Origin: Verrucomicrobiota bacterium
GTDB lineage: Bacteria > Verrucomicrobiota > Verrucomicrobiia > Limisphaerales > JACPZS01
Assembly: GCA_016195385.1 (NCBI GenBank)
Contig: JACPZS010000086.1
Location: 5,671 to 69,670, forward strand
Direction of reading: 5' to 3'
DNA: 64,000 nt
The notes under the pieces were generated by a model that searched no databases, was not told the origin of the DNA, and was given only the letters and a program-made list of their open reading frames with translations. Every line of letters begins with the position of its first letter. Position 1 is the first letter of the stretch. The position numbers and the translations under genes were made by a program. Positions 32,298 through 55,669 of this stretch are shown in pieces.

Positions 32298-34259
32298 ATG
32301 AATTTGGAATGGCTGTTGTTTCTGTTGCTCGTGCCGTTCGTGCTCCTGCCGCTGTTCACGCGGACACGCAGATCGAATGCGTGGAGGTGGGGAGCGGGTT
32401 TGAGCGTCGTCGCGTTGACTGTTTTGGGCGCGGGCTTCTGGGAGCGAAAACAATTTCTGCGTGCTTCAACTCGTGAAGCATTTCTCAAAACGGTGCCGCG
32501 CCAGGGCCGGCCGGATGGTTACCTTTCTTCCGACCAATGCGCTTCGTGTCATCCCGATCAATACGCGAGTTGGCATGGTACGTTTCATCGCACCATGACG
32601 CAGTACGCCTCACTCAGCGCGGTGGTCGGGCGCTTTGACGTCACGCCACTCGAGTTGAACGGCGAAACCTACCGGCTGGAGAAACGCGGCGAGGAATTTT
32701 GGGTCGAGATGCCGGATCCAGATTGGAAAAGCGACCCGGTGAATGCCCAGCGCGCGAAGCTCGGCACGCTCGCGCCCGCGCCGCGGGTTTGGAAGCGAGT
32801 TGGTTTGCTCACCGGCTCGCATCACATGCAGATTTACTGGGTGTCGAGCCGTGTGGGAAATTTGCAGCGGCTCTTTCCGTTTGCTTGGTTGATCGCCGAC
32901 CAGCGCTGGGTGCCGGTGCATGACACGTTTCTGCGCGACCCGACCTTCCCGCCGTTTGACCACATCTGGAACGTTAATTGCATCAAATGCCACAGCACCG
33001 GCGGCCAGCCGCAAGTGGACGCGCGCACGGGCACCGTGGACACGCGTGCAGGTGAACTCGGCATTGCCTGCGAAGCCTGCCACGGCCCCGCCGAGGAACA
33101 CGTGCGTGTGAATCACGATCTGCGGCGTCGGTACCTGGCGCATCGTGAGAACAAGGGCGACGTGACGGTTTTCAATCCGAAGCGGTCGAATAAACAAGTT
33201 TCTTCGCAAGCGTGCGGGCAGTGCCACGGCATCAAATGGATTCCAGCGGCGGAGAATTTTAACGCTCATGGATTTCGTTTTCGTCCGGGCCAGGATTTGA
33301 ATGAAACAACGCCAGTTGTCCGTCCCGCGCTCGCGAGCCAAAAGGTCTGGTTGAGTGAACGGCTGAAGCAAAGTCCAAAATTTGTGGAAGAGCATTATTG
33401 GTCGGACGGAATGGTGCGCGTTTCGGGCCGCGAGTATAACGGCCTCGTGGACTCGGCCTGCCACGAACGGGGCGAATTGAGTTGTGTCTCATGTCATTCG
33501 GCGCACGCGAGCAAGCCCGACGATCAATTGGCCGCGAAGATGGAGACGAGCGAAGCGTGCCTGCAATGCCACGATTCGTTTCGCAAAAAAATTCGCGAGC
33601 ACACGCATCACGCGCCGGGTTCGAGCGGCAGCGAATGTTACAACTGCCACATGCCGTACACGACTTACGGGCTGTTGAAAGCGATTCGCAGTCACAAGAT
33701 CGACAGTCCCAGCGTGAGCAGCAGCGTCCAGACGGGCCGGCCCAACGCCTGCAACTTGTGTCATCTCGATCAAAGTCTCGGCTGGACGGCGCAGCATTTG
33801 AAGGAGTGGTACAACCTCGCGCCGGTGGAATTAACGACGGAACAAAAAGAAATTTCCGCCGCCGTGTTGTGGTTGCTCAAAGGCGACGCCGGTCAGCGCG
33901 CGCTCATCGCCTACAGCATGGGCTGGGACGTGGCAAAAATGGTTTCGGGACAAGACTGGCTCGCGCCTTATCTGGCGCAATTGCTCGTCGATCCATATTC
34001 AGCGGTGCGCTACATCGCCGGGCGCTCGCTGCAACGGCTGCAGGGCTACGAAAAATTGAACTATGATTTTGTCGCGTCACCGAATGAGCGCGCGAAGGCG
34101 CAAACCAGCGCACTCGGGATTTGGAGGCAGGCGTCGGCGAGCCGGTTGGATCGCAGCGGCGCGAGGATCTTGATTGAATCGGGCACGGGTTTGCAGCAAG
34201 AGCGCTTTGATCGAATTTTGAAGCAGCGCGACGATCACTCGATGGATTTGCAGGAGTGA
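32298..34259 (+). CDS. membrane-anchored multiheme (eight CXXCH) cytochrome c with C-terminal HEAT-like repeats
   Basis: 653 aa with N-terminal hydrophobic helices. The eight CXXCH motifs are CASCH, CIKCH, CEACH, CGQCH, CVSCH, CLQCH, CYNCH and CNLCH. The C-terminal helical repeats resemble HEAT repeats (DPYSAVRYIAGRSLQRL). Confidence 0.85.
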   Translation: MNLEWLLFLLLVPFVLLPLFTRTRRSNAWRWGAGLSVVALTVLGAGFWERKQFLRASTREAFLKTVPRQGRPDGYLSSDQCASCHPDQYASWHGTFHRTMTQYASLSAVVGRFDVTPLELNGETYRLEKRGEEFWVEMPDPDWKSDPVNAQRAKLGTLAPAPRVWKRVGLLTGSHHMQIYWVSSRVGNLQRLFPFAWLIADQRWVPVHDTFLRDPTFPPFDHIWNVNCIKCHSTGGQPQVDARTGTVDTRAGELGIACEACHGPAEEHVRVNHDLRRRYLAHRENKGDVTVFNPKRSNKQVSSQACGQCHGIKWIPAAENFNAHGFRFRPGQDLNETTPVVRPALASQKVWLSERLKQSPKFVEEHYWSDGMVRVSGREYNGLVDSACHERGELSCVSCHSAHASKPDDQLAAKMETSEACLQCHDSFRKKIREHTHHAPGSSGSECYNCHMPYTTYGLLKAIRSHKIDSPSVSSSVQTGRPNACNLCHLDQSLGWTAQHLKEWYNLAPVELTTEQKEISAAVLWLLKGDAGQRALIAYSMGWDVAKMVSGQDWLAPYLAQLLVDPYSAVRYIAGRSLQRLQGYEKLNYDFVASPNERAKAQTSALGIWRQASASRLDRSGARILIESGTGLQQERFDRILKQRDDHSMDLQE

Positions 34260-34314
34260 ATCTTGCGAATCGGTATGAACCGAGGCGAATTTTTTTTGAA
34301 ACCCCAAACACGAC

Positions 34315-34815
34315 ATGAAATATAGACCTGACGATGGAGTTGCCGCTTGCGCCCGCAAACACCTGCGATGCGGTTGGTGGGCGCTGTTGTTTTTTTTGAC
34401 GCTGGGCATCTTGTTGGAGGCGCTGCATGGATTCAAAGTTGGCGCCTATTTGAACGTGAGCAATTCGACACGCCGACTGATGTGGACGCTGGCGCACGCG
34501 CACGGGGCCTTGCTGGCCCTCATCAACATCGCGTTCGGATTGACCGTGCGAGCGTTGACCGAGTGGCCGGCCAACCGGCGGAGCGTGGCTTCGGCCTGCC
34601 TCGTCGGCGCGAGTGTGCTGTTGCCGGGCGGATTTTTTGTTGGAGGAATCGTCATTTACGGCGGTGATCCAGGGCTGGGAATTTTGCTCGTTCCTCTCGG
34701 CGCGCTGTTGCTTTTCATCGCGGTGTTCCAGACGGCACGCGCGACGAATGGAATCAAGTCAACGGATGTGACCGAAGCGGCTTCTGCCAGAAAAAGCGGC
34801 GCGGATAAACACTGA
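34315..34815 (+). CDS. small integral membrane protein (about 4 TM helices), function unknown
   Basis: 166 aa with four hydrophobic stretches (WWALLFFLTLGILLEAL, LMWTLAHAHGALLALINIAFGL, ACLVGASVLLPGGFFVGGIVI, LGILLVPLGALLLFIAVF). It starts 55 nt after the cytochrome gene on the same strand. Confidence 0.6.
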   Translation: MKYRPDDGVAACARKHLRCGWWALLFFLTLGILLEALHGFKVGAYLNVSNSTRRLMWTLAHAHGALLALINIAFGLTVRALTEWPANRRSVASACLVGASVLLPGGFFVGGIVIYGGDPGLGILLVPLGALLLFIAVFQTARATNGIKSTDVTEAASARKSGADKH

Positions 34816-34910
34816 ACGGACTTTGAGTGACAGGTTGCGGACATGGACGAAGTGCGCTGCCGACGGGCATTTTGCGCCGCAATTGCAGCAGGAGGATTTT
34901 GCAGCACGAG

Positions 34911-34954
34911 TTTGTAACTGATTCGTAACAATTCCGACCTTTGTCCGTAACCTG
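34911..34954 (+). promoter_or_regulatory. Pho-box-like array: four 11-bp phased units (TTTGTAACTGA TTCGTAACAAT TCCGACCTTTG TCCGTAACCTG)
   Basis: GTAAC recurs at 34914, 34925 and 34947 in exact 11/22-bp phasing, and the array ends 51 nt upstream of the porin ATG. The same 44-bp architecture is found upstream of pstS at 46127..46170. Confidence 0.5.
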
Positions 34955-35004
34955 ACTTCCTTAGTTTAACGGCGAACAAACGACAACCTTTGGATAACCA
35001 GAAC

Positions 35005-36399
35005 ATGAAACAATCGAGTAAGCGATGGAGGATGAACCGAAACCTGCGGATTGCGGCCGCCGCGCTGTTGGCGAGCACGGCGTTTGTCGAGGCGGCGCAC
35101 AGCCAGGCGGTGGATGCGTTGCTCGACAAGCTGGTGGAGAAAGGAATTTTGAGCACCAAGGAAGCCAACGCACTGAAGCAGGAGAGCGATGAGGGATTCA
35201 CTAAAGCCTATCAGGTGAAGAGTGGCATGCCGGATTGGGTCAGCAGCCTGAAATTCAACGGTGATTTCCGCGGGCGAATTGAAGCATTCAATTCCGACAA
35301 TCCGGCCAGCATTGACCGCACTCGCTATCGCTACCGCCTACGCTACGGAGTAGTGGCGACCCTGAAAGATGACTTTGAAGTTGGTTTTCGCCTCGCTTCG
35401 GCCGACGCGACCGGCGGGTTTGGTGGCAATCCAGTTTCCGCCAATACCACGCTTCAAGGTGGCGGCTCGCGAAAATTTGTTTACATCGATGTGGCCTACG
35501 CGAAATGGACTCCGCTGCATGATGGCACGTGGACTGCCAGCGCAACGATTGGAAAAATGGACAACCCGTTTCAGGTTTCCAGCATGATTCTTGACCCGGA
35601 TTATCAGCCCGAGGGCGCGGCTTTGCAGGCTGGCTACAACTTCAACGAAAAGCACGGTCTCAAGTTGAATGGCGCGTTCTTTGCGCTTGCTGAACTCAAC
35701 CAGGCCACGCTGGCAAATCCCGCTCCAAGCCATGACCCGTTCCTGATCGGGGCCCAATTAGTTTGGGAAGCGAAATGGACGAAGAAAATCGAAACAGCCC
35801 TCGGGATCTCGGCGTTCAACCTGGCGAACAAGTCCAATCTGGATAACGCAATCGTTCCAAACGTCAACGACGGGAACACGCGCGGTGGCGACGGCTTGCT
35901 GGCGAATAATTACAACCCCATCGTAGGAAGCGCTGCCATCACTTTCAAGTTGGACAGTTTTCCGCTCTACCAGGGACAATTTCCAATTCGCCTGGCTGGC
36001 GAGTTTATGAAGAATCCGGGCGCGCCTTCGCAGAACGAAGGCCGTTGGGGCGGAGTCATGTTCGGCAAAGCGGGTCATAAGGGAGCGTGGGATCTTTCTT
36101 ACCGCTATCAACGTCTCGAGGCGGATGCCTGGTATGAAGAGGTCGTGGATGACGATAACGGGGCTTACTATCAGCAGCAGCTCATCGGCGCAGGTTTTAC
36201 CAGCGGCACCAATCCGGCTGGGGCCGGTTATCGTGGCGGCACCAATGTGAAGGGCCACTTGATCAAGGCCAACTATTCCATCACGGACGCCCTTACCTTC
36301 ACGCTGACCTACTATATGAACGAGTTAATCAAGGTCAGCCCGGCAGGTTCGGTGAACGGTGCTAATCATTTCATGGCGGATCTCAGTTGGAAATTCTGA
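35005..36399 (+). CDS. outer-membrane beta-barrel porin, probably phosphate-starvation inducible
   Basis: The ATG at 35005 gives the signal peptide MKQSSKRWRMNRNLRIAAAALLASTAFVEAAHS. An N-terminal helical segment (LLDKLVEKGILSTKEANALK) is followed by an alternating beta-strand pattern. The C-terminal ...ADLSWKF has the aromatic terminus typical of OM barrels. The Pho linkage is inferred from the upstream repeat array. The stop lies only 6 nt from the stop of the convergent TolC-like gene. Confidence 0.72.
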   Translation: MKQSSKRWRMNRNLRIAAAALLASTAFVEAAHSQAVDALLDKLVEKGILSTKEANALKQESDEGFTKAYQVKSGMPDWVSSLKFNGDFRGRIEAFNSDNPASIDRTRYRYRLRYGVVATLKDDFEVGFRLASADATGGFGGNPVSANTTLQGGGSRKFVYIDVAYAKWTPLHDGTWTASATIGKMDNPFQVSSMILDPDYQPEGAALQAGYNFNEKHGLKLNGAFFALAELNQATLANPAPSHDPFLIGAQLVWEAKWTKKIETALGISAFNLANKSNLDNAIVPNVNDGNTRGGDGLLANNYNPIVGSAAITFKLDSFPLYQGQFPIRLAGEFMKNPGAPSQNEGRWGGVMFGKAGHKGAWDLSYRYQRLEADAWYEEVVDDDNGAYYQQQLIGAGFTSGTNPAGAGYRGGTNVKGHLIKANYSITDALTFTLTYYMNELIKVSPAGSVNGANHFMADLSWKF

Positions 36400-36405
36400 T
36401 GCCGC

Positions 36406-37713
36406 CTACTTCGCCATTTGGCTGCCAGCCTTATGTCCAGTCTGGAAGTCGAGGACGGCCCGCTGGATGAGTTGTTCGTATCGCGCCGTGGCCAGTGCGA
36501 CTTCTGCGGTTGTCTTGTTCAATTGTGACTGGGTAAGTTCAGCAAGCGAACTGATACCGGCCTTGTACCTGGCCTCGGCGAGTTCAAACGAGCGGCTCGC
36601 TGTTTGGAATAACTTCTCGGTGAGGCCAACTCTTTCGGCGGCGTTGCGCGCATTGAGCCACGCCACGCGGACATCGCTGATGATGATCTCTTCTTCGCCG
36701 CGCAATTCCTCCGCAGCGACCCTGCTCTTGAGCAGGGCCGCTTTGCGCCTCGATTCAAATTGCCAGCCGTTGAAAATTGGCAGGCTCAGGTTAAGTCCGG
36801 CGGCGAGATAATTGTCCGGCAGTTTGGAGTTATGTTCGGGAAGCAATCCGCCGACGCCGATGGCACTGATGACGGGATAATGCAAAGCCCGTTCGGCATC
36901 GGCGAATTTTTTCGCGGCGTCGCGTTCCAGACTCAGGCGTGCCACTTCCGGCCGGTTGGCAAGAGCGGCGGCGATGAACAAGTGAACTTCGTCGGCCAGT
37001 ACGGCCGGCGGCGGCTCGTCGGCAAGCAATCGAACATAACCCTCCCGATCTCCCAACAGCGCGGCCAGCCGGGATTGCGCGGCCTTTTCGTCATTCTCCG
37101 CGCGCGACATGAGCACGCTGGCTTCGGCGAGCGCGGTTTCGGCGAAGCTGACATCCAGTTCAGACTTGAGCCGATTGGCGGCCAGCAACGCTACTTGATC
37201 GCGCAACAACTGACGCGTATTCACCGTTTGCTCGGCTACCTGGCGCACGGCTTTGGCTTGGAGCGATGAAAAGTAGGCGAAGTCCACCAATAGCAAAATT
37301 TGGGCGCGTGTCGCTTCGACATTTTTTTGTGCGGCCCGGGCATGGAGTCGGGCGCTCTCCAACAGATTCCAGGTTCGTCCAAAGTCAAACACCTGCCAGT
37401 TGACGGTTAAGCCGAAAGCCCCTCGATCATAAATGATCGGGTTGTTCAGCCCTCCGGCCGCGACTCGATTGTTGTCGCCATCGGTACCAACGACTGTGGC
37501 GTTGCCGGTCAGCGAAGGGAAAAATGGTGACCGCGCCTCGATGTCACTTTCTTTGGCAACGAGGGCGCGCAGTTCCGCGATCGTGATGCGCGGATGCACC
37601 TTCAACGCCAGTTCTTCCGCATCGTGTAAAGTCAGGGGAAGTGCATTGGTTTCCGCAGTAGCCGGGACAACCACAGCGAACAAAAGGATCAAGAACGAGG
37701 TGAATCGTCTCAT
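36406..37713 (-). CDS. TolC-like outer membrane efflux factor
   Basis: The ORF track starts at 37767, overlapping the RND gene. The ATG at 37713 gives the signal peptide MRRFTSFLILLFAVVVPATA. It has a two-fold repeat helical/beta architecture, and the LTLHDAEELALKVHP and SLQAKAVRQVAEQ segments are typical of the OMF family. Confidence 0.85.
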   Translation of the reverse strand: MRRFTSFLILLFAVVVPATAETNALPLTLHDAEELALKVHPRITIAELRALVAKESDIEARSPFFPSLTGNATVVGTDGDNNRVAAGGLNNPIIYDRGAFGLTVNWQVFDFGRTWNLLESARLHARAAQKNVEATRAQILLLVDFAYFSSLQAKAVRQVAEQTVNTRQLLRDQVALLAANRLKSELDVSFAETALAEASVLMSRAENDEKAAQSRLAALLGDREGYVRLLADEPPPAVLADEVHLFIAAALANRPEVARLSLERDAAKKFADAERALHYPVISAIGVGGLLPEHNSKLPDNYLAAGLNLSLPIFNGWQFESRRKAALLKSRVAAEELRGEEEIIISDVRVAWLNARNAAERVGLTEKLFQTASRSFELAEARYKAGISSLAELTQSQLNKTTAEVALATARYEQLIQRAVLDFQTGHKAGSQMAK

Positions 37714-37732
37714 GCGATTGGGAAGAGGGATT

Positions 37733-40700
37733 TCAATCGGGCGACGCTGTTGAAGCGGTTGTGACACTGGAAGGCGAGCTTGAATCGCGATCGCTGTGTC
37801 GATAGACGATCAAATACGCTGCCGGTACGATGAAGATGGTGAGCACGACCGAAACGGCCAAGCCGCCGATAATCGCGCGGGCCAGGGGCGCGTAGGCTTC
37901 CGAGCCGGCCCCGAGGCTGAAGGCCATCGGCAGCAAGCCGATGAGCGTCGCTAGTGATGTCATCAACACTGGGCGCAGTCGCACGCGGCAGGCCAGCGAC
38001 ACGGCTTCACGCAGCGGCTTTCCGTCCTCGCGCAGGCGGTGCGTGAACTCGACGATGAGGATGCTGTTGGACACCACGATCCCGACCATCATCACGACGC
38101 CCATCAGCGACATGACGTTGAGTGTCGTGCCAGTGATCAGCAACGTGATCAGCACACCGATCAGACCCGTCGGCACGGCGAGAAGAATGAGCAACGGATC
38201 GATCCAAGACTTAAACTGCGCGACGAGGATCAAATAGACGAGCACGACCGAAAGCAGCAGCCCCAGCCCAAAGCTTTTGAACGATGCCTGCATTCCTTGC
38301 ACCGAACCGCGCACGGTCACGCGCACGCCTTCGGGCAGGTTTGTCTCGACGATAATTTTGTTTACCGCGCCCAAAATCTTTCCCAAGTCTTCGCCCGTAG
38401 GAGCCACATAAACATCAATGACGCGGCGAAGTTGATAGTGATCCACTTCGGTCGGCGCGTGGATGTGCCGCAGACCGCTCACGGCATCAAGCCGGGCAGT
38501 CTTGGTCCTGGTCGCCGCGCGCACTGGAATGGCCTGAAGTTCCTCGAAAGTTTTCACGTGATTCTCAGGGTATTGAACCGTGAGCAGGTAATCGTTGCCG
38601 CTTTTGGGATCAACCCAGTAGCTCGGCGCGATCATCTGGTCGGAGGCCAGTGCCGTGATAACGTTGCCGACAACTTCCTTCGAGGTCAGGCCAAGCTGAC
38701 TGGCATGTTCGCGATCGATGTCGAGTTGCAAGGCCGGGTAATCGACATCCTGCGGCACCAGCACGTCGCTCACGCCGGGGAGGGCGCGCATTTTTCGCGC
38801 GAGTTCCGTGGCGGTTTGATGGGTGAGTTCGAGTTTGGATCCGCTCACCTGGATGTCCATCGGCGCGGGCAGACCGAGGTTCAACACGGCATCGACGAGG
38901 CCGCCGGATTGGAAATAGGCGCTGATCTCCGGCAACTCTTTTTCCAACCGCCGCCGCACACGGTTCATGTATTCGTAGCTGCCGATCTTGTGGGACTCTT
39001 TGAGACTGGCTTGCACAAACGCGGTATGTTGCGCGGAGTTCGGCGTGTACATCGAAGAAAAACCGGGCGTGACACCGATGTTGGCCACGATGATGCCGAG
39101 GTCGGTCGGCGCGACCTCTTCACGAATGATGTCCTCCACTTTTTTCACGAGTTGCTCGGTGTTTTCGAGTCGCGTGCCGGTCGTGGCTTTGAGATTGATG
39201 ACAAATTGCGCCGGGTCGGTGCGCGGAAAATAGGCGACGCCGATGAACGGGAACAGCCCGAGGCTCAGGAGAAAAGCGCCGGTCAGTCCCGCCACCGTGG
39301 CGGCTGGCCGCAGCAGCGCAACGCCCAGCCATCGCTCATAAGCATCGAGCAAGTTGTGGAACTTGCGGTTGAACCAGACATTGAAACGCTGACCACGCGA
39401 CTTCGACTTCTCCGGTTTGTTCGCGTCGTGCATTTGATGGCCTCGGATGAATTTCGCGCAGAACAGCGGCACGACCGTGAGCGCCACGAAGTAGGACGCG
39501 AAGAGCGAAAGCACCACGGACAGCGCCAGGGCGACGAACAAGAACCGGCTCACGCCGTACAGAAAAGTTACCGGGAAAAACACCACTGCCGTGGTAAGTG
39601 TCGCGGCCAGCACGGGCAGCGCCACTTCGCGTCCGCCCTTCTCAGCGGCGACCTCGGGTGTTTCGCCCAGTTCGAGATGACGGAAAATATTTTCCAGCAC
39701 GACGACGGAGTTGTCGATCAGTCGGGAGAATGCCAGCGCCAGTCCGCCCAGCACCATCGTATTCACCGTGCCTCCGCCGAGCGACAACGAAAAAAAAGTT
39801 GCGAGCGCCGAAAGTGGAATCGAGAGAAAAACGCCGAGTGTGGCGCGCATACTGCCAAGGAAAATCAAAATCATCACGCCAGTGAGAATCAGCCCGATGG
39901 CACCTTCGTGGATGAGGTTCTCGATCGCGTTGCGGACGAACACCGATTGATCGAAGACCACTTTGGTGACGAGTTCTTTCGGCACGTCCAGTAAGTGCGC
40001 CACGCCATCCTTGATGCCATCCACGACGGCGATGGTGTTGGCGTCGCCGCCCTGCTTGAGCACCGGCAGATACACAGATTTCTGGCCATCGACCCGCACG
40101 ATGTTGTTTTGGATTTGCGAAGCGTCCTTTGCCACGCCGACGTCACCGACCAGAACCGAGGCCTGACCGACCGTCTTGAGCGGAATGCGGTTGATGTCCT
40201 CGATTTTCTCAATCTGACTGTTGCAATAAATGTTGTAGTCGATGGGGCCGATCTTCACGTCGCCGGCGGGCAGGATCAAATTCGAGTCGTTCACCGCGCG
40301 AACCACGTCCATCACGCTCAACTGATGCGCCTCCAATTTCAGTGGATCGACATACACCATGATCTGCCGGTAGCGCCCACCGAACGGCTGCGGCACGGAC
40401 GCGCCGGGCACGCCGGCGATCTGGTTGCGCACAGTGTACTGGCCGAGGTCGCGCAGTTGCGTTTCGTTCAAGCCTTCACCTTTCAACGTCACGAGACACA
40501 CCGGCAGACTTGACGCGTCGAATTTCAACACGACCGGCGGCAGCGTCCCGGGCGGCAGACGGCGCAAATTCGCGGAAGCCAGGTTGGCAATGACACTGAC
40601 GGCGTTGTCCGCGTTCATGCCGGGTTGGAAATAGACTTTGATCAAACTCACGCCCGGCAACGAGCGTGATTCGATGTGGTCGATGCCGCTGGCCAGCGTG

Positions 40701-40906
40701 AAAAAGCGCTCGAAGCGTCCGGTGATGTCATTTTCAATTTGTTCCGGCGGCATCCCGGAAAAAAATGTGGCGACGACAACGACCGGAATTTTAATTGGCG
40801 GGAACAAATCCACCGGCATCCGCACCACACTGGTCACGCCGAGCACGCAAGTGACGAGACAAAGCACGATGATCAAATACGGGTAGCGAAGCGCGAAGCG
40901 TGACAT
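37733..40906 (-). CDS. RND efflux transporter permease (AcrB/CzcA superfamily)
   Basis: 1057 aa starting MSRFALRYPYLIIVLCLVTCVLGVTSVVRMPVDLFP. It has 12-TM topology with two large periplasmic loops. Conserved TM4-region motifs are present (LGGLALAFSRLIDNSVVVLENI). Confidence 0.95.
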   Translation of the reverse strand: MSRFALRYPYLIIVLCLVTCVLGVTSVVRMPVDLFPPIKIPVVVVATFFSGMPPEQIENDITGRFERFFTLASGIDHIESRSLPGVSLIKVYFQPGMNADNAVSVIANLASANLRRLPPGTLPPVVLKFDASSLPVCLVTLKGEGLNETQLRDLGQYTVRNQIAGVPGASVPQPFGGRYRQIMVYVDPLKLEAHQLSVMDVVRAVNDSNLILPAGDVKIGPIDYNIYCNSQIEKIEDINRIPLKTVGQASVLVGDVGVAKDASQIQNNIVRVDGQKSVYLPVLKQGGDANTIAVVDGIKDGVAHLLDVPKELVTKVVFDQSVFVRNAIENLIHEGAIGLILTGVMILIFLGSMRATLGVFLSIPLSALATFFSLSLGGGTVNTMVLGGLALAFSRLIDNSVVVLENIFRHLELGETPEVAAEKGGREVALPVLAATLTTAVVFFPVTFLYGVSRFLFVALALSVVLSLFASYFVALTVVPLFCAKFIRGHQMHDANKPEKSKSRGQRFNVWFNRKFHNLLDAYERWLGVALLRPAATVAGLTGAFLLSLGLFPFIGVAYFPRTDPAQFVINLKATTGTRLENTEQLVKKVEDIIREEVAPTDLGIIVANIGVTPGFSSMYTPNSAQHTAFVQASLKESHKIGSYEYMNRVRRRLEKELPEISAYFQSGGLVDAVLNLGLPAPMDIQVSGSKLELTHQTATELARKMRALPGVSDVLVPQDVDYPALQLDIDREHASQLGLTSKEVVGNVITALASDQMIAPSYWVDPKSGNDYLLTVQYPENHVKTFEELQAIPVRAATRTKTARLDAVSGLRHIHAPTEVDHYQLRRVIDVYVAPTGEDLGKILGAVNKIIVETNLPEGVRVTVRGSVQGMQASFKSFGLGLLLSVVLVYLILVAQFKSWIDPLLILLAVPTGLIGVLITLLITGTTLNVMSLMGVVMMVGIVVSNSILIVEFTHRLREDGKPLREAVSLACRVRLRPVLMTSLATLIGLLPMAFSLGAGSEAYAPLARAIIGGLAVSVVLTIFIVPAAYLIVYRHSDRDSSSPSSVTTASTASPD

Positions 40907-40917
40907 GGGAAATTATT

Positions 40918-41631
40918 TTAAGGCCGGGGCAAGGTGCTCTCACTCATCTCGCGGAGCGTCGCGCGGAGTTTTTCCGGGGAGAAATCACCGGCGCGGCAGG
41001 CGGTGATGAGCCGGCGTTCTTTTGCGATGATTTGGGCGGCTGCTGCGGGAATGTCTCTGGCCAGATCGATGGGGACCGAAAGAATTCCGTGAGCGTTGCC
41101 GTGGAGCAAATCGCCCGGCTGAATTTTAAGTCCCGCGACTTTTACTTCGCCGCCGATGCTCACGATGTGCGCGTACGCGTGCGATACCGTCAGGCCACCT
41201 GCGAACAACGGAAAGCCCAGCGCTTCAACCGCAGGCGCGTCGCGCACGGTGCCATTCGTAACCGTGCCGACGCAGCCCAACGCGCGCAGGATGTTCGCAT
41301 GAACTTCGCCGAGCAATGAGCCGGTGCCGGGCGCGTCGTCCACATCTTCGATGACCACGACACGCGGCGCGGGAATGCTCTGGATGAAATCCCACCAGTC
41401 GGTGCGGTCGAGATAATGATGTCCATCCGGCGGTGGCGAGGAACACCGAATCCGCACCGTGACCGCGTAACCGAGCAACGCGGGCAAGCGAGGAAACAGG
41501 CAGCGGATGCGGGCGTCGGTAAATCCCTCGTTGCGGAGGCGGAAATTAAAGGTCTCGATGGCGTTGGCCACGGTGCAGGTGTCCATCTGGCGGAGCGCCT
41601 CGAACTGTTCGGAGTTGAGCGGGTTGTTCAT
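40918..41631 (-). CDS. RraA-family protein (RNase E regulator / HMG-CHA aldolase-like fold)
   Basis: 237 aa. The motifs TCTVANAIE, GSLLGEVHANILRALGCVGTVTNGTVRD and GDLLHGNAHGIL match the RraA / dimethylmenaquinone-methyltransferase-like family. Its ATG overlaps the adaptor stop (ATGA), and it ends 11 nt before the RND start. Confidence 0.8.
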   Translation of the reverse strand: MNNPLNSEQFEALRQMDTCTVANAIETFNFRLRNEGFTDARIRCLFPRLPALLGYAVTVRIRCSSPPPDGHHYLDRTDWWDFIQSIPAPRVVVIEDVDDAPGTGSLLGEVHANILRALGCVGTVTNGTVRDAPAVEALGFPLFAGGLTVSHAYAHIVSIGGEVKVAGLKIQPGDLLHGNAHGILSVPIDLARDIPAAAAQIIAKERRLITACRAGDFSPEKLRATLREMSESTLPRP

Positions 41632-42863
41632 GGGGCGTTGGTGGCGCTGATGAGCTTCGGGGCGACGAGCTGGCCTGGTTTGACTTGAGTGCGATTGCCA
41701 ATCATCACCAGCTCGTTTTCATTCAAGCCACTCAACACTTCGATCTTGGACGGCGTTTCAAGACCGAGCGCAAGCGGGCGTTCTTCGATGTGGTTCTCCC
41801 GATTCACGACAAAGACGGTCGTGGTCTGGCCACGCGCGAGCGCCTCGACCGGGACGGCCAGCGCGCGCTCGCGGCGATCCAGTTTGAGCGTGACTGACGC
41901 ATACATGCCAGGGACGAGCGCCATATCCCGGTTGAGCACATCGACTTCGATCTCCATTTTCCGGGTTGCCGAATCTACTTTGTGGGTGGAGCGCGCGATG
42001 GTCCCGAGGAACGGTTTACTGCTCGACTCGACATGCACTTGGGCCGGGTCGCCCATCTTGATGCGGGCAACATGCGATACGGAGACGGGAAACACCAGCC
42101 GCAGTCGGTCATTTTGCGACAGCCGCACCAACGGGAGCGCCTGCGTGCTCGATGCCGTGCCGGCTTGAATCAGCGCGCCCGGATCGGCGAAGCGCCTGGT
42201 AATGACGCCGGCAAAGGGAGCGGTAATGCGCGAATATTTGAGCATTGTCCGGAGTTTGCTGACTTCAGCGCGGGCGACGTCCACCTGGGATTTCGTGGCG
42301 GCGAGCGTGGCTGCGGCCACGCGGTCTTTGCCCTGCGCGGCATCAAGATCCTGTTGGGCGATGAGGTTGGGCTGTGATTTTTCGACGGCTACCAGACGTA
42401 CGTAGGCAAGGTGCGTTTCTTCGTAGGCGGCTTCGGCGCGAGTGACTTCCTGTTCGCTGCGTTTTTGCATGGCCTCGGTGCGCGTGATGTCGTCGGCCAA
42501 TTCCGGCACTTCAATCACCGCAAGAAGCTGCCCAGCCTCGACGTGGTCGCCAATGTCCACGCTGATGCTCTCCAAGTAACCTGCGACTTTGGCGTGCAAC
42601 TCAATTTCCTGATAGGGCCGCAATTCGGCATCCACGATCAACTCCTGCGCCAAGTCCGCGCGCGACACTTTGACGACGGCAACCGGCGGGATTTTGCCCG
42701 ACGTGGTGTCTGCCTTGGCGTGAACGCGCACGGCGCGATAAAGCGGAATTGCCGCCGCCGCGAACACGACGAAGAAGGCGATCCGCCAGCCCAACATTTT
42801 CGAAATGCGCTTTGGAGGCTGACTCGCGGGCGGATGGGTTTGTTCCTGAATTTCAGTGCTCAT
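41628..42863 (-). CDS. RND efflux periplasmic adaptor (membrane fusion protein)
   Basis: 411 aa with an N-terminal anchor. It has a lipoyl-like segment (HAKVAGYLESISVDIGDHVEAGQLLAVIE), a coiled-coil hairpin, and a beta-barrel segment (ITAPFAGVITRRFADPGALIQ). Confidence 0.9.
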   Translation of the reverse strand: MSTEIQEQTHPPASQPPKRISKMLGWRIAFFVVFAAAAIPLYRAVRVHAKADTTSGKIPPVAVVKVSRADLAQELIVDAELRPYQEIELHAKVAGYLESISVDIGDHVEAGQLLAVIEVPELADDITRTEAMQKRSEQEVTRAEAAYEETHLAYVRLVAVEKSQPNLIAQQDLDAAQGKDRVAAATLAATKSQVDVARAEVSKLRTMLKYSRITAPFAGVITRRFADPGALIQAGTASSTQALPLVRLSQNDRLRLVFPVSVSHVARIKMGDPAQVHVESSSKPFLGTIARSTHKVDSATRKMEIEVDVLNRDMALVPGMYASVTLKLDRRERALAVPVEALARGQTTTVFVVNRENHIEERPLALGLETPSKIEVLSGLNENELVMIGNRTQVKPGQLVAPKLISATNAP

Positions 42864-44284
42864 GATTTTTGCCCGGCTTGTTCCGTAGGCGTTGACGCCA
42901 GCGGGAGTTCCACTCGGAAGCGGCTGCCCTGGCCGGGCGTGCTGCTGACTTCGACGTGCCCGTGGTGGGCCGCGCAGATGGATTGCACGATCGACAAACC
43001 CAGCCCCGCGCCGCCCAGTTCGCGCGAGCGCGCTTTATCGACCCGATAGAATCGTTCAAATACATGCGGCAGCGCCTCCGCCGGGATGCCGATGCCGTTG
43101 TCAGAAACTTCCAGCACAGTTTTGCCGTCGTGAGCGGCTACGGTCAAACCGATGGTGCCGTTCTCCATCGTGTATTTGATCGCATTGTCGAGCAGGTTCA
43201 CCACGACTTGTTTTAAGCGCGCGCGGTCGCCTTCGACCCAAGCGCCTCTGGCAGCGATGCAAGTGACGCGGATGTGCTTGTCATCGGCGAGCAGCAGCAT
43301 CTGATCGGATGTCGAAGCCGCCAATTGAGCGAGGTCAAAAACCTTCCATTCCACCTGTGCCTCGCCCACGTCGAGACGGGCGATGGCAAAAAGGCCTTCC
43401 ACGATGCGGGCCAACCGCTCGGCTTCCTCCAGCGTGCTGCCGATTCGTTCGTGCAAATCCGAGTTGAGGCATTCTTCCTGGACGAGGTTCTCCAGTTCGC
43501 CGCGCACCACGGTGAGTGGCGTGCGCAGTTCGTGCGACACGTCGGCGAGAAAAAGGCGGTTGTATTGAAATGCTTCATCGAGCCGCGCGATCATCCGGTT
43601 CAACGCCTGCGAAAGATGCTCGAACTCGTCGCCCGTCGGCGTCACCACCAGACGTTCGCTCAAGTTGCGCGATGTAATCCGCTCGGCGCTGCGCGTGATC
43701 TCTTCGACCGGCCGCAACGCTCGGCGCACGAGTAGAAAGCCTCCGCCCAGCGCCATGCCCGCGACCGCTACGAAGCCTACGGCCAGCAACACCAGCAGCC
43801 GGCGCAATTCAACGAGCGCCGGCGCGAGGGATTCGCCAGTCTCGACGAAAAAGCGGACTGCGCCATTCGAACTGGCTGCGGCTGTGGCGAGCAAGAGTTC
43901 GCCGCCATCGGTAAGCGTTTCCTTGCGCGTGCCTGGCTGCCGGGGCGGCGGGGAAATTTGCGCGGGGTTGAAACTCTGGTCGAGCGGGGCGCTGGACTCG
44001 TAAATGACAACGCCGTCGGGTCGCGAGACGCGAATGAAGCGGCTGCTGGCCTCCGGCGCAAAGCGCGTGGTGATTTCCTCCGCCAAATTTTTCTCCGGGA
44101 TGAGATTCATGCGCGACACCAGAGTGGCGATGCGTTGCGCCCGTTGCATTTGCGCGCTTCCGAGGTTGTGCTCCAGGTAATGGCGCAGCCCAAAATAAAT
44201 CAATGCGCCCGCTGTCACGAAGATTCCGCCCAGCCAGAGCGCATACCACAACACCAGCCGGAAGCGCAGCGAGTGGACGTTCAT
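42860..44284 (-). CDS. sensor histidine kinase (2 TM + HAMP + HisKA + HATPase), heavy-metal-sensor-like architecture
   Basis: N-terminal LRFRLVLWYALWLGGIF. The H-box is FLADVSHELRTPLTVVRGELE. N/G boxes are present (DNAIKYT, DNGIGIP, GGAGLGLSIV). ATGA overlaps occur at both ends. Confidence 0.9.
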   Translation of the reverse strand: MNVHSLRFRLVLWYALWLGGIFVTAGALIYFGLRHYLEHNLGSAQMQRAQRIATLVSRMNLIPEKNLAEEITTRFAPEASSRFIRVSRPDGVVIYESSAPLDQSFNPAQISPPPRQPGTRKETLTDGGELLLATAAASSNGAVRFFVETGESLAPALVELRRLLVLLAVGFVAVAGMALGGGFLLVRRALRPVEEITRSAERITSRNLSERLVVTPTGDEFEHLSQALNRMIARLDEAFQYNRLFLADVSHELRTPLTVVRGELENLVQEECLNSDLHERIGSTLEEAERLARIVEGLFAIARLDVGEAQVEWKVFDLAQLAASTSDQMLLLADDKHIRVTCIAARGAWVEGDRARLKQVVVNLLDNAIKYTMENGTIGLTVAAHDGKTVLEVSDNGIGIPAEALPHVFERFYRVDKARSRELGGAGLGLSIVQSICAAHHGHVEVSSTPGQGSRFRVELPLASTPTEQAGQKS

Positions 44285-44961
44285 GCCGGCTCCTCGTCAG
44301 TAAGACAATAGCCTGCGCCGCGCACCGTGCGGATGAGCTTGCGCTCGTGCGGCTCGTCTACTTTGGTCCGCAAGTGACGCACATAAACATCAACGATGTT
44401 CGTCAATCCCTCGAAACTTTCGTCCCAGACATGCTCGATGATCATCGTGCGCGTGAGCACGCGACCGGGGTGAGCGGCCAGGTATTCGAGGAGGGCGTAT
44501 TCTTTCGCGGTCAGGTCGATTCGCTTGCCGGCGCGACGCACTTGTTGCGTGAGGCGATCCATTTCGAGGTCGGCTACGCGCAATGTGTGACTGCGGCTGG
44601 CCGGCGGACGGCGCAGGAGCGCCTTTACGCGCACCACCAATTCTGCGAACGCGAACGGTTTTGTGAGATAATCGTCGGCACCCGCTTCGAAATTTTCGAT
44701 CTTGTCGCTCGTGGCGTCTCGGGCGGTCAGCACAAGCACCGCCGCGTTGCCGCCGCGTCGCCGGAGGCGGCGAAGCAACTCCGTGCCGCTGAGTCCAGGC
44801 AGCATGAGATCGAGGATGATCAAGTCATAATCCACGTTCGCGGCCATTTCCCATCCACTGAGGCCATCAACGGCGACATCGACAGCGAAGCGCTCGGCCC
44901 GCAGTCCGCGGGCGATGAAATCAGCCACCTTCCGTTCGTCTTCAACGAGTAGTAAGCGCAT
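44281..44961 (-). CDS. OmpR/PhoB-family response regulator
   Basis: The ATG at 44961 gives MRLLLVEDERKVADFI. The receiver has DLIILDLMLPGLSG and GADDYLTKPF. A complete winged helix is present (LTAKEYALLEYLAAHPGRVLTRTMIIEHVW ... VRGAGYCL). Confidence 0.9.
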   Translation of the reverse strand: MRLLLVEDERKVADFIARGLRAERFAVDVAVDGLSGWEMAANVDYDLIILDLMLPGLSGTELLRRLRRRGGNAAVLVLTARDATSDKIENFEAGADDYLTKPFAFAELVVRVKALLRRPPASRSHTLRVADLEMDRLTQQVRRAGKRIDLTAKEYALLEYLAAHPGRVLTRTMIIEHVWDESFEGLTNIVDVYVRHLRTKVDEPHERKLIRTVRGAGYCLTDEEPA

Positions 44962-45029
44962 TCCAATTCGCGATAACCGACGCACCATAACGCAGGACCA
45001 TTAAAGCACGCTGAACCGCGAATTAAAAT

Positions 45030-45407
45030 CTATTCAGAATCTTCCAGCATCATACAATAATGACCATGGGGCAGGACCGTTTTGTTCGGGACTCGACCGA
45101 ACGGTCTCGTCATTTCCGGTTCGGCGTGAGGTTGATGGGATTGGCTTTGATGTTCAAAAGCCACGCAGAACTGCTCCAACACCTCGCGTTCGGCTCGGAG
45201 CCAATCGCTTAAGGCAATGCCTTGGCGTGAGCCTCCGGCAAGCCAGAACTTGTGCGCCCGCCTCTCAATCTCTTCCTGAACCCATCGGTGTTGCTCTGCC
45301 GTAAAATAGGTTCGAGTGGGGGTTATGTACTCGATTTTAATCCTCATACGACTTCTCCTCCAGTCACGCATTGTTGTGCGATTCAACTGACAAGCGCGCT
45401 CTTTCAT
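45030..45407 (-). CDS. small protein with DUF2934-like motif
   Basis: EIERRAHKFWLAGGSRQGIALSDWLRAEREVLEQF resembles the DUF2934 signature (RAYxxW...G...DWxxAE). The start overlaps the upstream stop (ATGA). Internal ATG starts are also possible. Confidence 0.5.
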   Translation of the reverse strand: MKERACQLNRTTMRDWRRSRMRIKIEYITPTRTYFTAEQHRWVQEEIERRAHKFWLAGGSRQGIALSDWLRAEREVLEQFCVAFEHQSQSHQPHAEPEMTRPFGRVPNKTVLPHGHYCMMLEDSE

Positions 45408-46126: not shown

Positions 46127-46170
46127 TTTGTAACCAATTCGTAACAATTCCGACCTCTATCCGTAACGCG
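46127..46170 (+). promoter_or_regulatory. Pho-box-like array upstream of pstS (TTTGTAACCAA TTCGTAACAAT TCCGACCTCTA TCCGTAACGCG)
   Basis: It has the same four-unit, 11-bp phased architecture as 34911..34954, with GTAAC at 46130, 46141 and 46163. Units 2 and 3 are identical to the porin copy except for two positions. Confidence 0.5.
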
Positions 46171-46294
46171 CAGTCTTTAACTTGTGGGCGAACGAGAACA
46201 CATGAATCACGCCAGCATGAAACAAACAAGTGGCCGAATGAAGATACAGCAACAACAGCGGGTCGCCGTAGCGGCCATCGTAGCTTGAGAAATT

Positions 46295-50249: not shown

Positions 50250-50327
50250 GCAAGGATCGAGAGCGCGTCGAATTGGCAATGAAATCTCTCCGGCAGATAC
50301 AAACGACAATCACAAACGAAATTGGTT

Positions 50328-51487: not shown

Positions 51488-51495
51488 CGCCGGCG

Positions 51496-52973: not shown

Positions 52974-53068
52974 AGGCCGGCGGGTATTTGCGCTGACACC
53001 CATTTGTCACCTGGTTGTTTCCGAGGTGTCGTTGTGAGCGGGTGCGTGTGCGGTTAAACTTTGGTCAG

Positions 53069-53608
53069 ATGCATAGAGTATTAGTTGTGGACGACGAGGC
53101 GGATGTCGTGGATTTGGTTGCCTTCAATTTCAAGAATGCGGGCTACGAAGTGGTCACGGCATCCAATGGCGATGAAGCGTTGACCAAGGCGCGGACAACT
53201 TCGCCGTCCATTATTTTGCTGGATGTGATGCTTCCCGGCATTGATGGCTTTGAAGTGTGCCGCCTCCTGCGCCGCGACCCGACGACGAGCGGGCTGCCAA
53301 TCATCATGGTGACGGCGCGAGCGACCGAGCTTTCGCGCGCGGTGGGTCTGGAATCAGGCGCGGACGCTTACATGACCAAGCCCTTCAGCCCGCGCGAGCT
53401 GGTGGTGCGGGCGAACCATCTGTTGTTGGGCCGGGATTTGCGCGCGGAGGCGCCCGAGGAATACAATTTGAAGGACGTGTTCATCGATGTGCCCGGACAA
53501 TTTGTTTCGGTGAATGGTCAGCGCATGGATCTCACCGCGCCGGAGATCAAACTGGTGAGCCAATTGACGAACGCCATTTTGCGCCGTTTGGATGCGGACT
53601 GGATCTGA
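53069..53608 (+). CDS. PhoB-like response regulator with truncated winged-helix domain
   Basis: It has a complete receiver (VLVVDDEADVVDLV, IILLDVMLPGIDG, GADAYMTKPFSPRELV). The output domain stops after the first helix (MDLTAPEIKLVSQLTNAILRRLDADWI-stop). The recognition helix and wing are therefore missing. Confidence 0.75.
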   Translation: MHRVLVVDDEADVVDLVAFNFKNAGYEVVTASNGDEALTKARTTSPSIILLDVMLPGIDGFEVCRLLRRDPTTSGLPIIMVTARATELSRAVGLESGADAYMTKPFSPRELVVRANHLLLGRDLRAEAPEEYNLKDVFIDVPGQFVSVNGQRMDLTAPEIKLVSQLTNAILRRLDADWI

Positions 53609-53664: not shown

Positions 53665-54393
53665 ATGGTCGTTGAAGAACAATTGCCACCGGTGGCCGCC
53701 AAAAATAAATCCACGGCAAAGATTCTGGTCGTTGACGACGAGCCAGATGCCATCGAATTGATCCGTTTCAACTTGAACGCGGCTGGTTACGAAGTAATCA
53801 CCGCCGAGGATGGCGAGGAGGCGCTCAAACGCGCTCGTGCAACCGCGCCGGACTTGATCCTGCTGGACATCATGCTGCCGGAAGTGGACGGACTGGAAGT
53901 CTGCAAAATTCTCCGGCGCGATCCTGCCACGTCGGCGATTCCCATCATCATGCTGACGGCGAAGGCGGCGGAGATTGACCGCGTGCTGGGATTGGAGTTG
54001 GGCGCGGATGATTACGTGACCAAACCATTTAGTCCGCGCGAATTGGTGCTGCGCATCAAGAGCAGGTTGCGGCGGAACCAGCCGAACGAAACCAAGGCGG
54101 ATCAAATCCGGCTCGGCGAGTTGCACATCGACATTCCCCGGCATCAGGTGCTCGTGCAGGGCAAGGAAATTGATCTGACGGCCACCGAGTTCAAGTTGCT
54201 CACGGTGCTGGCGCAGCGCCGTGGACGCGTGCAGTCACGCGATCAACTCCTGCAAGATGTGTGGGAGTACGACAACATGATCGATACGCGCACGGTGGAC
54301 ACGCACATGCGCCGCTTGCGCGAGAAATTGGGGCGAGCCGCGAAGTATCTGGATACAGTTCGCGGCGTTGGTTATCGTTTCGTGGAAAGCTGA
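53665..54393 (+). CDS. phoB: phosphate regulon response regulator PhoB
   Basis: The ATG at 53665 gives MVVEEQ...KILVVDDEPDAIELI. The receiver has LILLDIMLPEVDG and GADDYVTKPFSPRELV. The winged helix is full length (LTATEFKLLTVLAQRRGRVQSRDQLLQDVW ... VRGVGYRF). It is adjacent to a PhoR-like kinase and the pst-phoU genes. Confidence 0.85.
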   Translation: MVVEEQLPPVAAKNKSTAKILVVDDEPDAIELIRFNLNAAGYEVITAEDGEEALKRARATAPDLILLDIMLPEVDGLEVCKILRRDPATSAIPIIMLTAKAAEIDRVLGLELGADDYVTKPFSPRELVLRIKSRLRRNQPNETKADQIRLGELHIDIPRHQVLVQGKEIDLTATEFKLLTVLAQRRGRVQSRDQLLQDVWEYDNMIDTRTVDTHMRRLREKLGRAAKYLDTVRGVGYRFVES

Positions 54394-54487
54394 AGCGCGA
54401 CCGGCGAATGCGCTTCGCGTCCCGCCGATTGACTGGCGCGGGTTCGCGCTTGCTTTACCTTCCCTCATTTCGCCACCGTTTCTCCGT

Positions 54488-55669
54488 ATGTTCTGGCCGG
54501 CATTGGCAATCGTTTTCGGTTTGGCGTTGGGCGCTGCCTGGTATTATTGGCGTCAGCACCAGGCGGAAGCGAAGCGCGAGCTGGCAGCGCGTGAAACTCG
54601 TGTTGCGGAACTGGAGGAACAGCAGCGGTTGATTCGTGAACAAGCCCGTGATCAGCAGCAGGCGTTGTTCAACAGCATGGTCGAAGGCGTGCTGTTTGTG
54701 GATCGCGACGGGCGCATTCAATCCGCCAATTCATCGCTGGAACAACTTTTCGGACTGACCACCGACATCCGCGGACAGACGATTCTCGAAGCTTTGCGGA
54801 CGCATGAGCTTTCCGAACTGGCCGCGCGATTATTGCGCGACGGCACGGTTTCCGGACTCGAATTAAATTTGGCGGGGTTGAATTCACGTTGTCTCGAAGT
54901 GAATGCGGCGACTGTGTTGAACCAGACCGGCGAGCGACAGGGCGCGATTTTTGTCTTCCACGATTTGACGAGGATCAAACAACTGGAAAACACGCGGCAG
55001 GAATTCGTTGCCAACGTGAGCCATGAGTTGCGCACACCGCTGTCGTTGATCAAAGGATTTGTCGAAACACTGCTCGATGGCGCGAAGAACGATCCCGAAG
55101 TGGCGACGCGCTTTTTGCAGACGATCGAGAAGCATACTGATCGGCTGACTTACCTCATCGAAGATTTGCTGACGATTTCGCGGCTGGAATCAGGCCAAAT
55201 CGTGTTGAACCTGCAAAGTGTTGATTTGCGCGCGGCGGCCGGGCAAGTCATCGCCGACTTGAGTTCCCGGGCCAAGGCCAAGTCGGTGACTTTGGAAAAT
55301 CACGTGCCCGCGGGCTTGAGCGCCCGGGCGGACTCGGATCGATTGCAACAGGTGTTTTTCAACTTGATTGACAATGCGATCAAATACGGACGCGAAGGCG
55401 GTCGGGTGGAAGTGATGGGGGCTGCGTTCGCCGACTGGCAAGTGGAATTGCGCGTGACTGATGACGGAGCGGGCATTCCGCCCGAAGCGCAGGAGCGTGT
55501 GTTCGAGCGGTTTTATCGCGTGGATCGAGCGCGTTCGCGCGATACCGGCGGCACGGGACTGGGCCTGGCGATTGTCAAACACATCGTCCAATCGCATCAC
55601 GGCGAGGTGAGCGTGACCAGCGTGCCCGGCGAAGGAACATCGTTTCTCTTTCGGCTGCCAGAAAAGTGA
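54488..55669 (+). CDS. phoR: phosphate regulon sensor histidine kinase PhoR
   Basis: The ATG at 54488 gives the TM helix MFWPALAIVFGLALGAAWYYW. A PAS-like segment is present (MVEGVLFVDRDGRIQSAN). The H-box is FVANVSHELRTPLSLIKGF, with N/G boxes DNAIKYG, DDGAGIP and GGTGLGLAIV. Confidence 0.85.
   Translation: MFWPALAIVFGLALGAAWYYWRQHQAEAKRELAARETRVAELEEQQRLIREQARDQQQALFNSMVEGVLFVDRDGRIQSANSSLEQLFGLTTDIRGQTILEALRTHELSELAARLLRDGTVSGLELNLAGLNSRCLEVNAATVLNQTGERQGAIFVFHDLTRIKQLENTRQEFVANVSHELRTPLSLIKGFVETLLDGAKNDPEVATRFLQTIEKHTDRLTYLIEDLLTISRLESGQIVLNLQSVDLRAAAGQVIADLSSRAKAKSVTLENHVPAGLSARADSDRLQQVFFNLIDNAIKYGREGGRVEVMGAAFADWQVELRVTDDGAGIPPEAQERVFERFYRVDRARSRDTGGTGLGLAIVKHIVQSHHGEVSVTSVPGEGTSFLFRLPEK

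Follow-up and report, generated by a model that had tools for sequence, protein, structure and literature searches.

Tandem 11-bp direct repeats upstream of a porin gene and pstS as predicted Pho boxes in a bacterium of the order Limisphaerales (Verrucomicrobiota)

The window analyzed here is a stretch of 64,000 nucleotides from a Verrucomicrobiota genome (Limisphaerales; contig JACPZS010000086.1, positions 5,671 to 69,670), and the subject is a pair of 44-bp arrays of 11-bp direct repeats, one upstream of a porin gene and one upstream of the phosphate transport gene pstS. Features of the window lie on the plus strand unless stated otherwise. The porin gene (35005..36399) encodes a member of the Porin_5 family (Pfam PF16930, E = 2e-28), and the first array precedes it at 34911..34954. 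The second array, at 46127..46170, precedes the genes pstS (46295-47155), pstC (47269-48456), pstA (48457-49419), pstB (49428-50249) and phoU (50322-50990), which were assigned by Pfam and NCBIfam (PstS family TIGR02136, 252 bits; PhoU TIGR02135, 213 bits). Adjoining pst-phoU is a gene for an OmpR-type response regulator (53665..54393), of which the best NCBIfam match is PhoB (TIGR02154, 269 bits), followed by a gene for a PhoR-type sensor kinase with PAS, HisKA and HATPase domains (54368..55669), which matched PnpS best (NF046044, 389 bits) and PhoR third (TIGR02966, 305 bits). The gene identities given in an initial annotation of this DNA, namely porin, PstS, PstC/A/B, PhoU and an OmpR-type regulator with its kinase, therefore hold. 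We propose that both arrays are, very probably, tandem Pho boxes which would act as operators for the phosphorylated form of this OmpR-family PhoB.

Each array is built of four 11-bp units, as the initial annotation had described and as the reading of both sequences confirmed. The porin array consists of TTTGTAACTGA (34911-21), TTCGTAACAAT (34922-32), TCCGACCTTTG (34933-43) and TCCGTAACCTG (34944-54), while the paralogous pstS array reads TTTGTAACCAA TTCGTAACAAT TCCGACCTCTA TCCGTAACGCG. In both arrays, units 1, 2 and 4 are strong (T-Y-GT[C/A]AC) and unit 3 is degenerate (CC-G-C/A-C), and 38 of the 44 positions are identical between the two. The pattern YYYGTAAC-N3-YYYGTAAC was found in the window just at the two arrays, with 0.00 occurrences expected from shuffled sequences, and the pattern GTAAC-N6-GTAAC-N17-GTAAC occurs in the whole 5.9-Mb assembly just at the porin array and the pstS array.

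It has been reported that two direct-repeat units of 11 nt make up a Pho box, that 7 positions of each unit are conserved and 4 are variable, and that the consensus is species specific (PMC4415409). The arrays likewise contain at least two head-to-tail direct-repeat units of 11 nt, with about 7 conserved and 4 less conserved positions in each. The suggestion that this lineage uses a core GTAAC instead of TGTCA had to be corrected, as the lineage consensus is T-Y-GT[C/A]AC, in register with CT-GTCAT/C of E. coli, and the half-sites TY-GT[C/A]AC and CT-GTCAT/C are essentially one base apart.

We then compared the encoded regulator with E. coli PhoB. The two proteins are 45% identical, the recognition helix reads RTVDTHMRRLR in the window and RTVDVHIRRLR in E. 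coli, and the wing TVRGVGYRF is retained, with TVRGxGYRF kept between the two proteins. Since the recognition helix and the wing are nearly unchanged, a near-identical half-site is expected. Thus, a cognate PhoB/PhoR pair is encoded beside pst-phoU, and the residues predicted to read the DNA are compatible with the half-site found in the arrays.

The conservation of the porin array was analyzed in porin orthologues from metagenome-assembled genomes of subdivision 3 of the Verrucomicrobiota (under labels such as Limisphaerales), in which the proteins are 45-61% identical and each represents a different family of the order. Among the 36 assessable promoters, 29 carry GT[C/A]A[C/T]-N6-GT[C/A]A[C/T] at 45-102 nt before the start codon. 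In those 29 promoters, unit 1 is GTCAC in 15 and GTAAC in 13, unit 2 is GTAAC in 23, unit 4 is present in 25, a canonical unit 3 in 1 and a fifth unit in 4. Columns that did not serve as anchors are conserved as well, namely T-Y before each core, C-A-A-T-Y between units 1 and 2, and G-C-C-n-T in the degenerate unit 3. In an unanchored count of same-strand GT[AC]AC pairs, 91 of 135 distances were multiples of 11 (33 at 11 nt, 28 at 22 nt and 27 at 33 nt), while the opposite strand gave 0 pairs and coding regions gave 1. The 11-bp phasing that had been noticed in this single genome is thus conserved upstream of porin/pstS operons across the order.

Alignment of the two promoter regions showed that the homology between the arrays extends about 100 nt downstream, into a decayed porin start-codon region within the pstS leader. 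Over these 100 nt the identity is 52-66%, while upstream of the arrays there is no similarity between the two regions (41% identity with gaps). The decayed porin start, MKQTSGRMKIQQQQRVAVAAIVA followed by a stop, parallels MKQSSKRWRMNRNLRIAAAAL of the porin, and the vestigial porin 5' end now forms a 28-codon upstream open reading frame (ORF) at 46202..46288, translated as MNHASMKQTSGRMKIQQQQRVAVAAIVA followed by a stop; this ORF corresponds to a decayed porin signal-peptide region. Judged from this alignment, the two arrays are paralogous, and their likeness is largely inherited rather than independent. Since the arrays share ancestry, a statistic of the kind "more than chance" overstates the evidence for the pair, and the likeness alone is weak evidence of function.

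The arrays may accordingly be taken for the remnant of a recent segmental duplication with no regulatory meaning, and the shared ancestry of the two copies, with homology that reaches well past the array into the decayed porin start, fits such an origin. However, while the flanks have decayed, all 32 core positions are identical and all 6 differences fall at unit positions 9-11, that is, in the spacers. The chance that all 6 differences would land in spacers is P = 1.3e-4, and the probability of 32 unchanged positions at a flank identity of about 59% is about 5e-8. This pattern of divergence, with cores kept and spacers changed, supports constraint after duplication and hence a function of the arrays. 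Furthermore, the array is kept at 29 of the 36 promoters of distant orthologues and is found again at other, unrelated genes of phosphate metabolism (see below). A duplication remnant with no function is therefore highly improbable.

The gene order in relatives bears on the same history. In 16 of 38 orthologue loci, pstS lies directly after the porin gene, with the pstS start about 25-160 nt past the porin stop codon and a PstS 67-80% identical to that of the window. Among close pstS orthologues retrieved in a separate set, 8, including that of the sole relative from the same family, have the porin C-terminus (…WKF and stop) directly upstream of pstS. This adjacency suggested that in the ancestral arrangement one promoter drove porin-pstSCAB-phoU. 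In the present genome, about 9.7 kb of minus-strand genes, comprising an efflux operon with its two-component system and two small protein genes, stand between porin and pstS. The ancestral operon would have been split by this insert, with the promoter and the first porin codons duplicated in the process. The prediction that the porin belongs to the phosphate response, which had been drawn from the shared motif, is supported by the conserved gene order more than by the motif.

In three loci with an intact porin-pstS operon (L005, L012 and L014), an extra two-unit box of 16-18 bits (scored as described below) is present in the porin-pstS spacer at -53 to -58 from pstS, and its first unit overlaps the porin stop codon (TTTTAA or TTCTAA). 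These boxes suggest an internal PhoB-dependent promoter for pstS in these relatives.

To search the genome, position weight matrices (PWMs) were built from 25 relatives only, with the present genome excluded, in a 40-column version and a two-unit version, and column-permuted matrices served as controls. With the 40-column matrix, the porin array scored 50.0 bits and the pstS array 44.5 bits, whereas the next genomic site scored 14.8 bits and the permuted controls reached at most 18.4 bits. In relatives, arrays were also found upstream of pstS loci without a porin gene (L016, 40.6 bits; L015, 27.0 bits). In addition, four-unit arrays of 35-41 bits occur about 1.2 kb upstream of a second, about 40%-identical type of pstS in L020, L022 and L027, where they head operons in which another gene precedes the distant pstS paralogue. 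The arrays at these operons indicate that, within the order, the motif would act at pst loci of more than one kind.

With the two-unit matrix, six sites in the genome scored above all permuted controls (maximum 20.1 bits), and their neighbours were identified by Pfam. The porin array and the pstS array are among the six. A site of 25.4 bits has its near edge 12 nt upstream of the start codon of a PhoU_div-PhoU_div-PHO4 (Pit) operon and is inverted relative to that operon. A site of 21.4 bits (C216:23417) lies 48 nt before the gene of a secreted CotH/EF-hand protein, a site of 20.4 bits (C227:77962, minus strand) lies beside the start of a divergent dnaA-like ORF, and a site of 20.2 bits (C149:11406) lies 104 nt before a VTC-DUF4956 gene pair. 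The ppk1 gene has a weaker three-unit array, ATGTGACGCAA ATGTCACTAGC CAAGTGACGGC, which begins 77 nt before the ATG and is followed exactly 10 nt later by TATACT. The genome-wide search that the initial annotation had proposed thus found the motif not only at pst and the porin but also at Pit, ppk1 and CotH/VTC as further phosphate genes. As for phoX and phoD, which had been named as test genes, phoX is absent from the genome and the only phoD-like match is below the cut-off.

We then scored the promoters of orthologues of these genes in relatives with the two-unit matrix. In random 310-nt windows, the best score reached 9.3 bits at the 99th percentile and 14.7 bits at the 99.9th percentile. 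For DUF47-Pit, 19 of 29 orthologues had a site at the 99th percentile (0.29 expected), and 11 relatives share the layout of the present genome, with the box inverted and its far edge 24-30 nt from the ATG. For ppk1, 13 of 28 orthologues had a site at the 99th percentile (0.28 expected) and 10 at the 99.9th, all in the same orientation at -63 to -98. Among close orthologues of the CotH gene, 3 of 7 had a site at the 99.9th percentile (0.007 expected), one of which heads a CotH-VTC cluster. Pho boxes are expected at the promoters of genes for phosphate acquisition and storage, above all pstS, and the motif follows this pattern. Outside the order, ppk1 promoters carried a site at the 99th percentile in 2 of 15 cases in other orders of the class (0.15 expected) and in 0 of 14 cases in other classes of the phylum, which served as a negative control (0.14 expected); these counts speak against an extension of the motif beyond the order.

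The CotH-kinase/EF-hand gene and the VTC-DUF4956 pair are separate loci in the present genome, each with its own two-unit box. In three relatives (G021:C339, G024:C78 and G022:C21), the CotH gene lies directly upstream of the VTC gene on the same strand, which suggests that CotH and VTC-DUF4956 form one functional module.

The region downstream of the arrays was analyzed for promoter elements. In the 25 relatives, a c-A-n-n-n-T hexamer begins at a fixed distance of exactly 10 nt from the unit-4 core; its second base is A in 23 of 25 and its sixth base is T in 23 of 25. In the window, the corresponding putative -10 hexamers are TAGTTT for the porin (34962..34967), with a predicted start at about 34973-34975, and TAACTT for pstS (46178..46183), with a predicted start at about 46189-46191. 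Both lie exactly 10 nt past the unit-4 core, and MAFFT placed them in the same alignment columns. The initial annotation had pointed to a shared TTTAAC hexamer, which is indeed present 10 nt (porin) or 5 nt (pstS) after the array and overlaps the putative -10 hexamers, but does not stand as a conserved shared element. As a shared -10 element it was rejected, since its spacing varies whereas [C/T]AnnnT at the fixed distance of 10 nt is conserved and aligned between the copies; by the alignment, the TTTAAC shared at variable spacing is a by-product of paralogy. The promoter scan found no -35/-10 consensus promoter overlapping either array, as expected for an activator-dependent promoter. The proximal box would thus take the place of a -35 element, 10 nt upstream of the putative -10 hexamer.

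The same geometry is found at the pstS promoter of E. coli, where four units of 11 bp are likewise arranged head to tail and the third is weak (CTGTCATAAAA CTGTCATATTC CTTACATATAA CTGTCACCTGT). These units, followed by TTGTCC and then by TATTTT, were found in 5,423 of 5,426 genomes, ending 26 nt before pstS. If TATTTT is the -10 element of E. coli pstS, as we assume, the last core is 10 nt from the -10 hexamer in E. coli as in the window, and in either organism the array lies upstream of pstS at a promoter that has no -35 element. The two systems differ in that E. coli has the core GTCAT/GTCAC, whereas the arrays here have GT[C/A]AC and favor A in units 2 and 4. The spacers here are also less A/T-rich, and the promoter here originally drove a porin gene ahead of pstS. 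Operators of PhoP in Streptomyces coelicolor, which may be simple or complex, share the variable number of 11-nt direct-repeat units of unequal conservation (PMC2275107; PMC4415409). They have a GTTCACC core and a regulator of another lineage, and were validated by binding assays.

A different promoter type was also considered. In Bacillus, promoters of sigma-X/W have the form TGTAAC-N17-CGAC/CGTA. If the arrays were promoters of an extracytoplasmic function (ECF) sigma factor, TCGTAAC of unit 2 would serve as the -35 element and CGTAAC of unit 4 as the -10 element, with 16-17 nt between them, and GTAAC-N17-GTAAC with CG before the second core superficially fits such a pair. However, unit 1, located 11 nt upstream, is as conserved as unit 2, and at some promoters three or four units follow one another or a fifth is added, at multiples of 11. 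A distinct -10-like hexamer is conserved at a distance of 10 nt past unit 4. The ppk1 sites have units 1 and 2 with no GTAAC at the unit-4 offset, and use TAnnnT hexamers. The inverted Pit motif, with its far edge 24-30 nt from the start codon, would make no sense as a promoter core. The arrays are thus not the single -35 GAAC-like/-10 CGT-like pair at 16-17 nt spacing upstream of a start that an ECF sigma factor would require, and we regard this alternative as very unlikely.

The shared element may also be imagined to act at the RNA level, as a leader or riboswitch-like structure, in favor of which there is nothing beyond the shared sequence itself. An Rfam scan of 34000-47000 found no family at E <= 1, and the array lies upstream of the -10-like hexamer and is probably not transcribed. 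The strict 11-bp phasing of direct repeats points to a protein on DNA, and the Pit motif is inverted. An RNA element is consequently highly improbable.

The most serious alternative concerns the identity of the protein. The genome encodes five OmpR-type winged-helix regulators, one of which belongs to the efflux operon located between the two arrays (about 44281-44988, minus strand), and direct repeats with 11-bp phasing are a feature of OmpR-family sites in general, not of PhoB sites alone. Moreover, PhoB scored below the NCBIfam cut-off. The arrays could then be operators of another OmpR-family regulator, such as that of the efflux operon. On the other hand, the motif is kept in relatives whose porin gene adjoins pstS without an intervening efflux operon, the genes that bear the motif (pst, Pit and ppk1) are phosphate genes, and the half-site departs from the PhoB site of E. 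coli at a single base, with the PhoB helix nearly unchanged. Whichever regulator binds the arrays would, by its regulon, be the phosphate regulator. Another OmpR-family protein as the binder is thus unlikely, and the encoded PhoB stands as the preferred candidate.

Several results nevertheless weigh against the interpretation of the arrays as Pho boxes bound by PhoB. Both regulatory proteins are just below the NCBIfam equivalog cut-offs, with PhoB at 269 bits against 296 and PnpS at 389 bits against 400. Among solved structures, E. coli PhoB is not the one most closely related to the DNA-binding domain of the window PhoB, so that the identification as PhoB rests on its status as best match, the recognition helix, the PhoR-like partner and the pst-phoU neighbourhood. 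The bits of the PWMs are inflated, as the core columns were fixed by anchoring, and the permuted-column and background-window controls correct for this in part. The relatives are related genomes, so the binomial P values, which are tiny, overstate independence. In the promoters L031-L066, the -10-like hexamer of most relatives starts with C (CAnnnT) where T is usual, while the window copies start with TA. The site at C227:77962, with 20.4 bits against a control maximum of 20.1, has no link to phosphate and probably represents chance; it sits in what could be the origin region. None of the 8 VTC orthologues had a site at the 99th percentile directly upstream (0.08 expected), and the VTC-DUF4956 pair was accordingly rejected as a conserved member of the regulon. 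Three of these VTC genes lie just downstream of a CotH gene, and in those cases the box may sit at the CotH gene instead. What was observed in this analysis is the sequence, the phasing, the conservation, the gene associations, the promoter geometry and the conservation of the PhoB helix, while we infer from the sequence the binding of PhoB, the phosphate-dependent expression, the direction of regulation and the start sites.

With Pho boxes as the preferred reading of the arrays, the following mechanism may be proposed. When phosphate is scarce, PhoR (54368-55669) would phosphorylate PhoB, and PhoB protomers would bind head to tail on the 11-bp units. The last unit occupies the place where a -35 element would be, and the promoter-proximal PhoB, 10 nt from the -10 hexamer, would substitute for the -35 contact and recruit RNA polymerase. 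The porin, pstSCAB-phoU, ppk1 and CotH genes would thereby be turned on, as at E. coli pstS. In contrast to these genes, the DUF47-DUF47-Pit operon, encoding low-affinity uptake, would probably be repressed via its box, which is inverted and at its near edge comes within 12 nt of the start codon. Since this box would lie between any promoter and the start codon and is inverted, binding most simply would block transcription, which matches the orfA-pit operon of Sinorhizobium meliloti (PMC3131613).

In S. meliloti, orfA-pit is repressed by PhoB upon phosphate starvation and has a Pho box just upstream of the start codon (PMC3131613). There, a PhoU-like DUF47 gene (orfA) comes before pit, and the box lies by the translation start and not upstream of the promoter (PMC3131613). 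The present genome and eleven relatives share this layout. The operon described here has two DUF47 genes before Pit and a box that is inverted relative to the operon, and its repression is a prediction.

The porin at 35005..36399 was further analyzed by structure prediction. An AlphaFold model made with a 25-sequence alignment (pLDDT 80.8, pTM 0.75) shows a beta-barrel behind an N-terminal helical segment. Foldseek returned OmpM1 of Veillonella as the best match (TM 0.72 on the target), with OprP at rank 10 and OprO at rank 22 (TM about 0.5). The porin had no Porin_O_P match in Pfam and no sequence relative in the PDB. The idea that this porin is a relative of OprP/OprO accordingly found no support in either its sequence or its fold.

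The regulation of PhoE in E. coli and of OprP/OprO in Pseudomonas by the Pho system is established. Like these proteins, the porin described here is an outer-membrane beta-barrel porin under Pho-box control, which here is predicted, and is found together with high-affinity phosphate uptake. It differs from them in its membership of Porin_5, in the helical segment at its N-terminus and in its co-transcription with pstS, either at present or in the ancestral state. The porin would thus be a functional analogue of PhoE/OprP from outside their families. A regulon of PhoB that reaches beyond transport to the secreted CotH-kinase/EF-hand protein and the VTC-DUF4956 module of polyphosphate type, which form one cluster in some relatives, and in which Porin_5 serves as a phosphate-starvation porin, is a tentative proposal that we consider possible but somewhat doubtful.

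Other features around the regulator genes were also recorded. Directly upstream of phoB, an ORF of 179 amino acids (53069..53608) has PhoB as its best NCBIfam match over positions 3-167 of 226 and, by alignment, contains a complete receiver domain and linker without the recognition helix or wing. This ORF may be either a tandem duplicate in decay or an independent receiver that would compete for the phosphoryl groups of PhoR. A weak phased array, CTGACACCCAT TTGTCACCTGG TTGTTTCCGAG GTGTCGTTGTG, is located at 52993..53036, within a gap of 95 nt that precedes the regulator genes. It scored 13.7 bits with the two-unit matrix, between the 99th and 99.9th background percentiles, and has no -10 hexamer at the expected offset. 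This array is a candidate for an autoregulation site and was not counted as evidence. The interval between phoU and the regulator genes (51011-52973) contains an ORF without a Pfam match, a gene with a CHAD domain, a family associated with polyphosphate, and a His_Phos_1 (SixA-like) gene. All three run in the same direction as pst and phoBR. Elsewhere in the genome, a site of 16.9 bits (C112:5930), which is below the controls and was not counted, precedes a P-II (GlnB/K-like) gene, after which comes a gene that probably encodes an ammonium transporter. Cross-talk between phosphate and nitrogen is known in other bacteria.

The mechanism proposed here is a textbook one. What is new is its extension to this lineage, and the understanding of Pho regulation is unchanged by it. 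In the searchable literature, we found no description of a Pho box or a Pho regulon for Verrucomicrobia. The split operon, with its duplicated promoter and decayed porin start, offers a tidy case of a regulon member that keeps its control after rearrangement. If the wider regulon is true, it would place a bacterial VTC/CotH system under direct phosphate-starvation control and would add a new class of Pho porin. The analysis assigns a predicted role to a porin of the Porin_5 family and gives a hint that CotH/VTC modules belong to phosphate physiology. The motif may serve for the annotation of phosphate-starvation genes in metagenomes and as a guide to phosphorus limitation in metatranscriptomes. 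The results thus provide a testable PhoB recognition sequence and a first sketch of the Pho regulon for a large, mostly uncultured soil and freshwater order of Verrucomicrobia.

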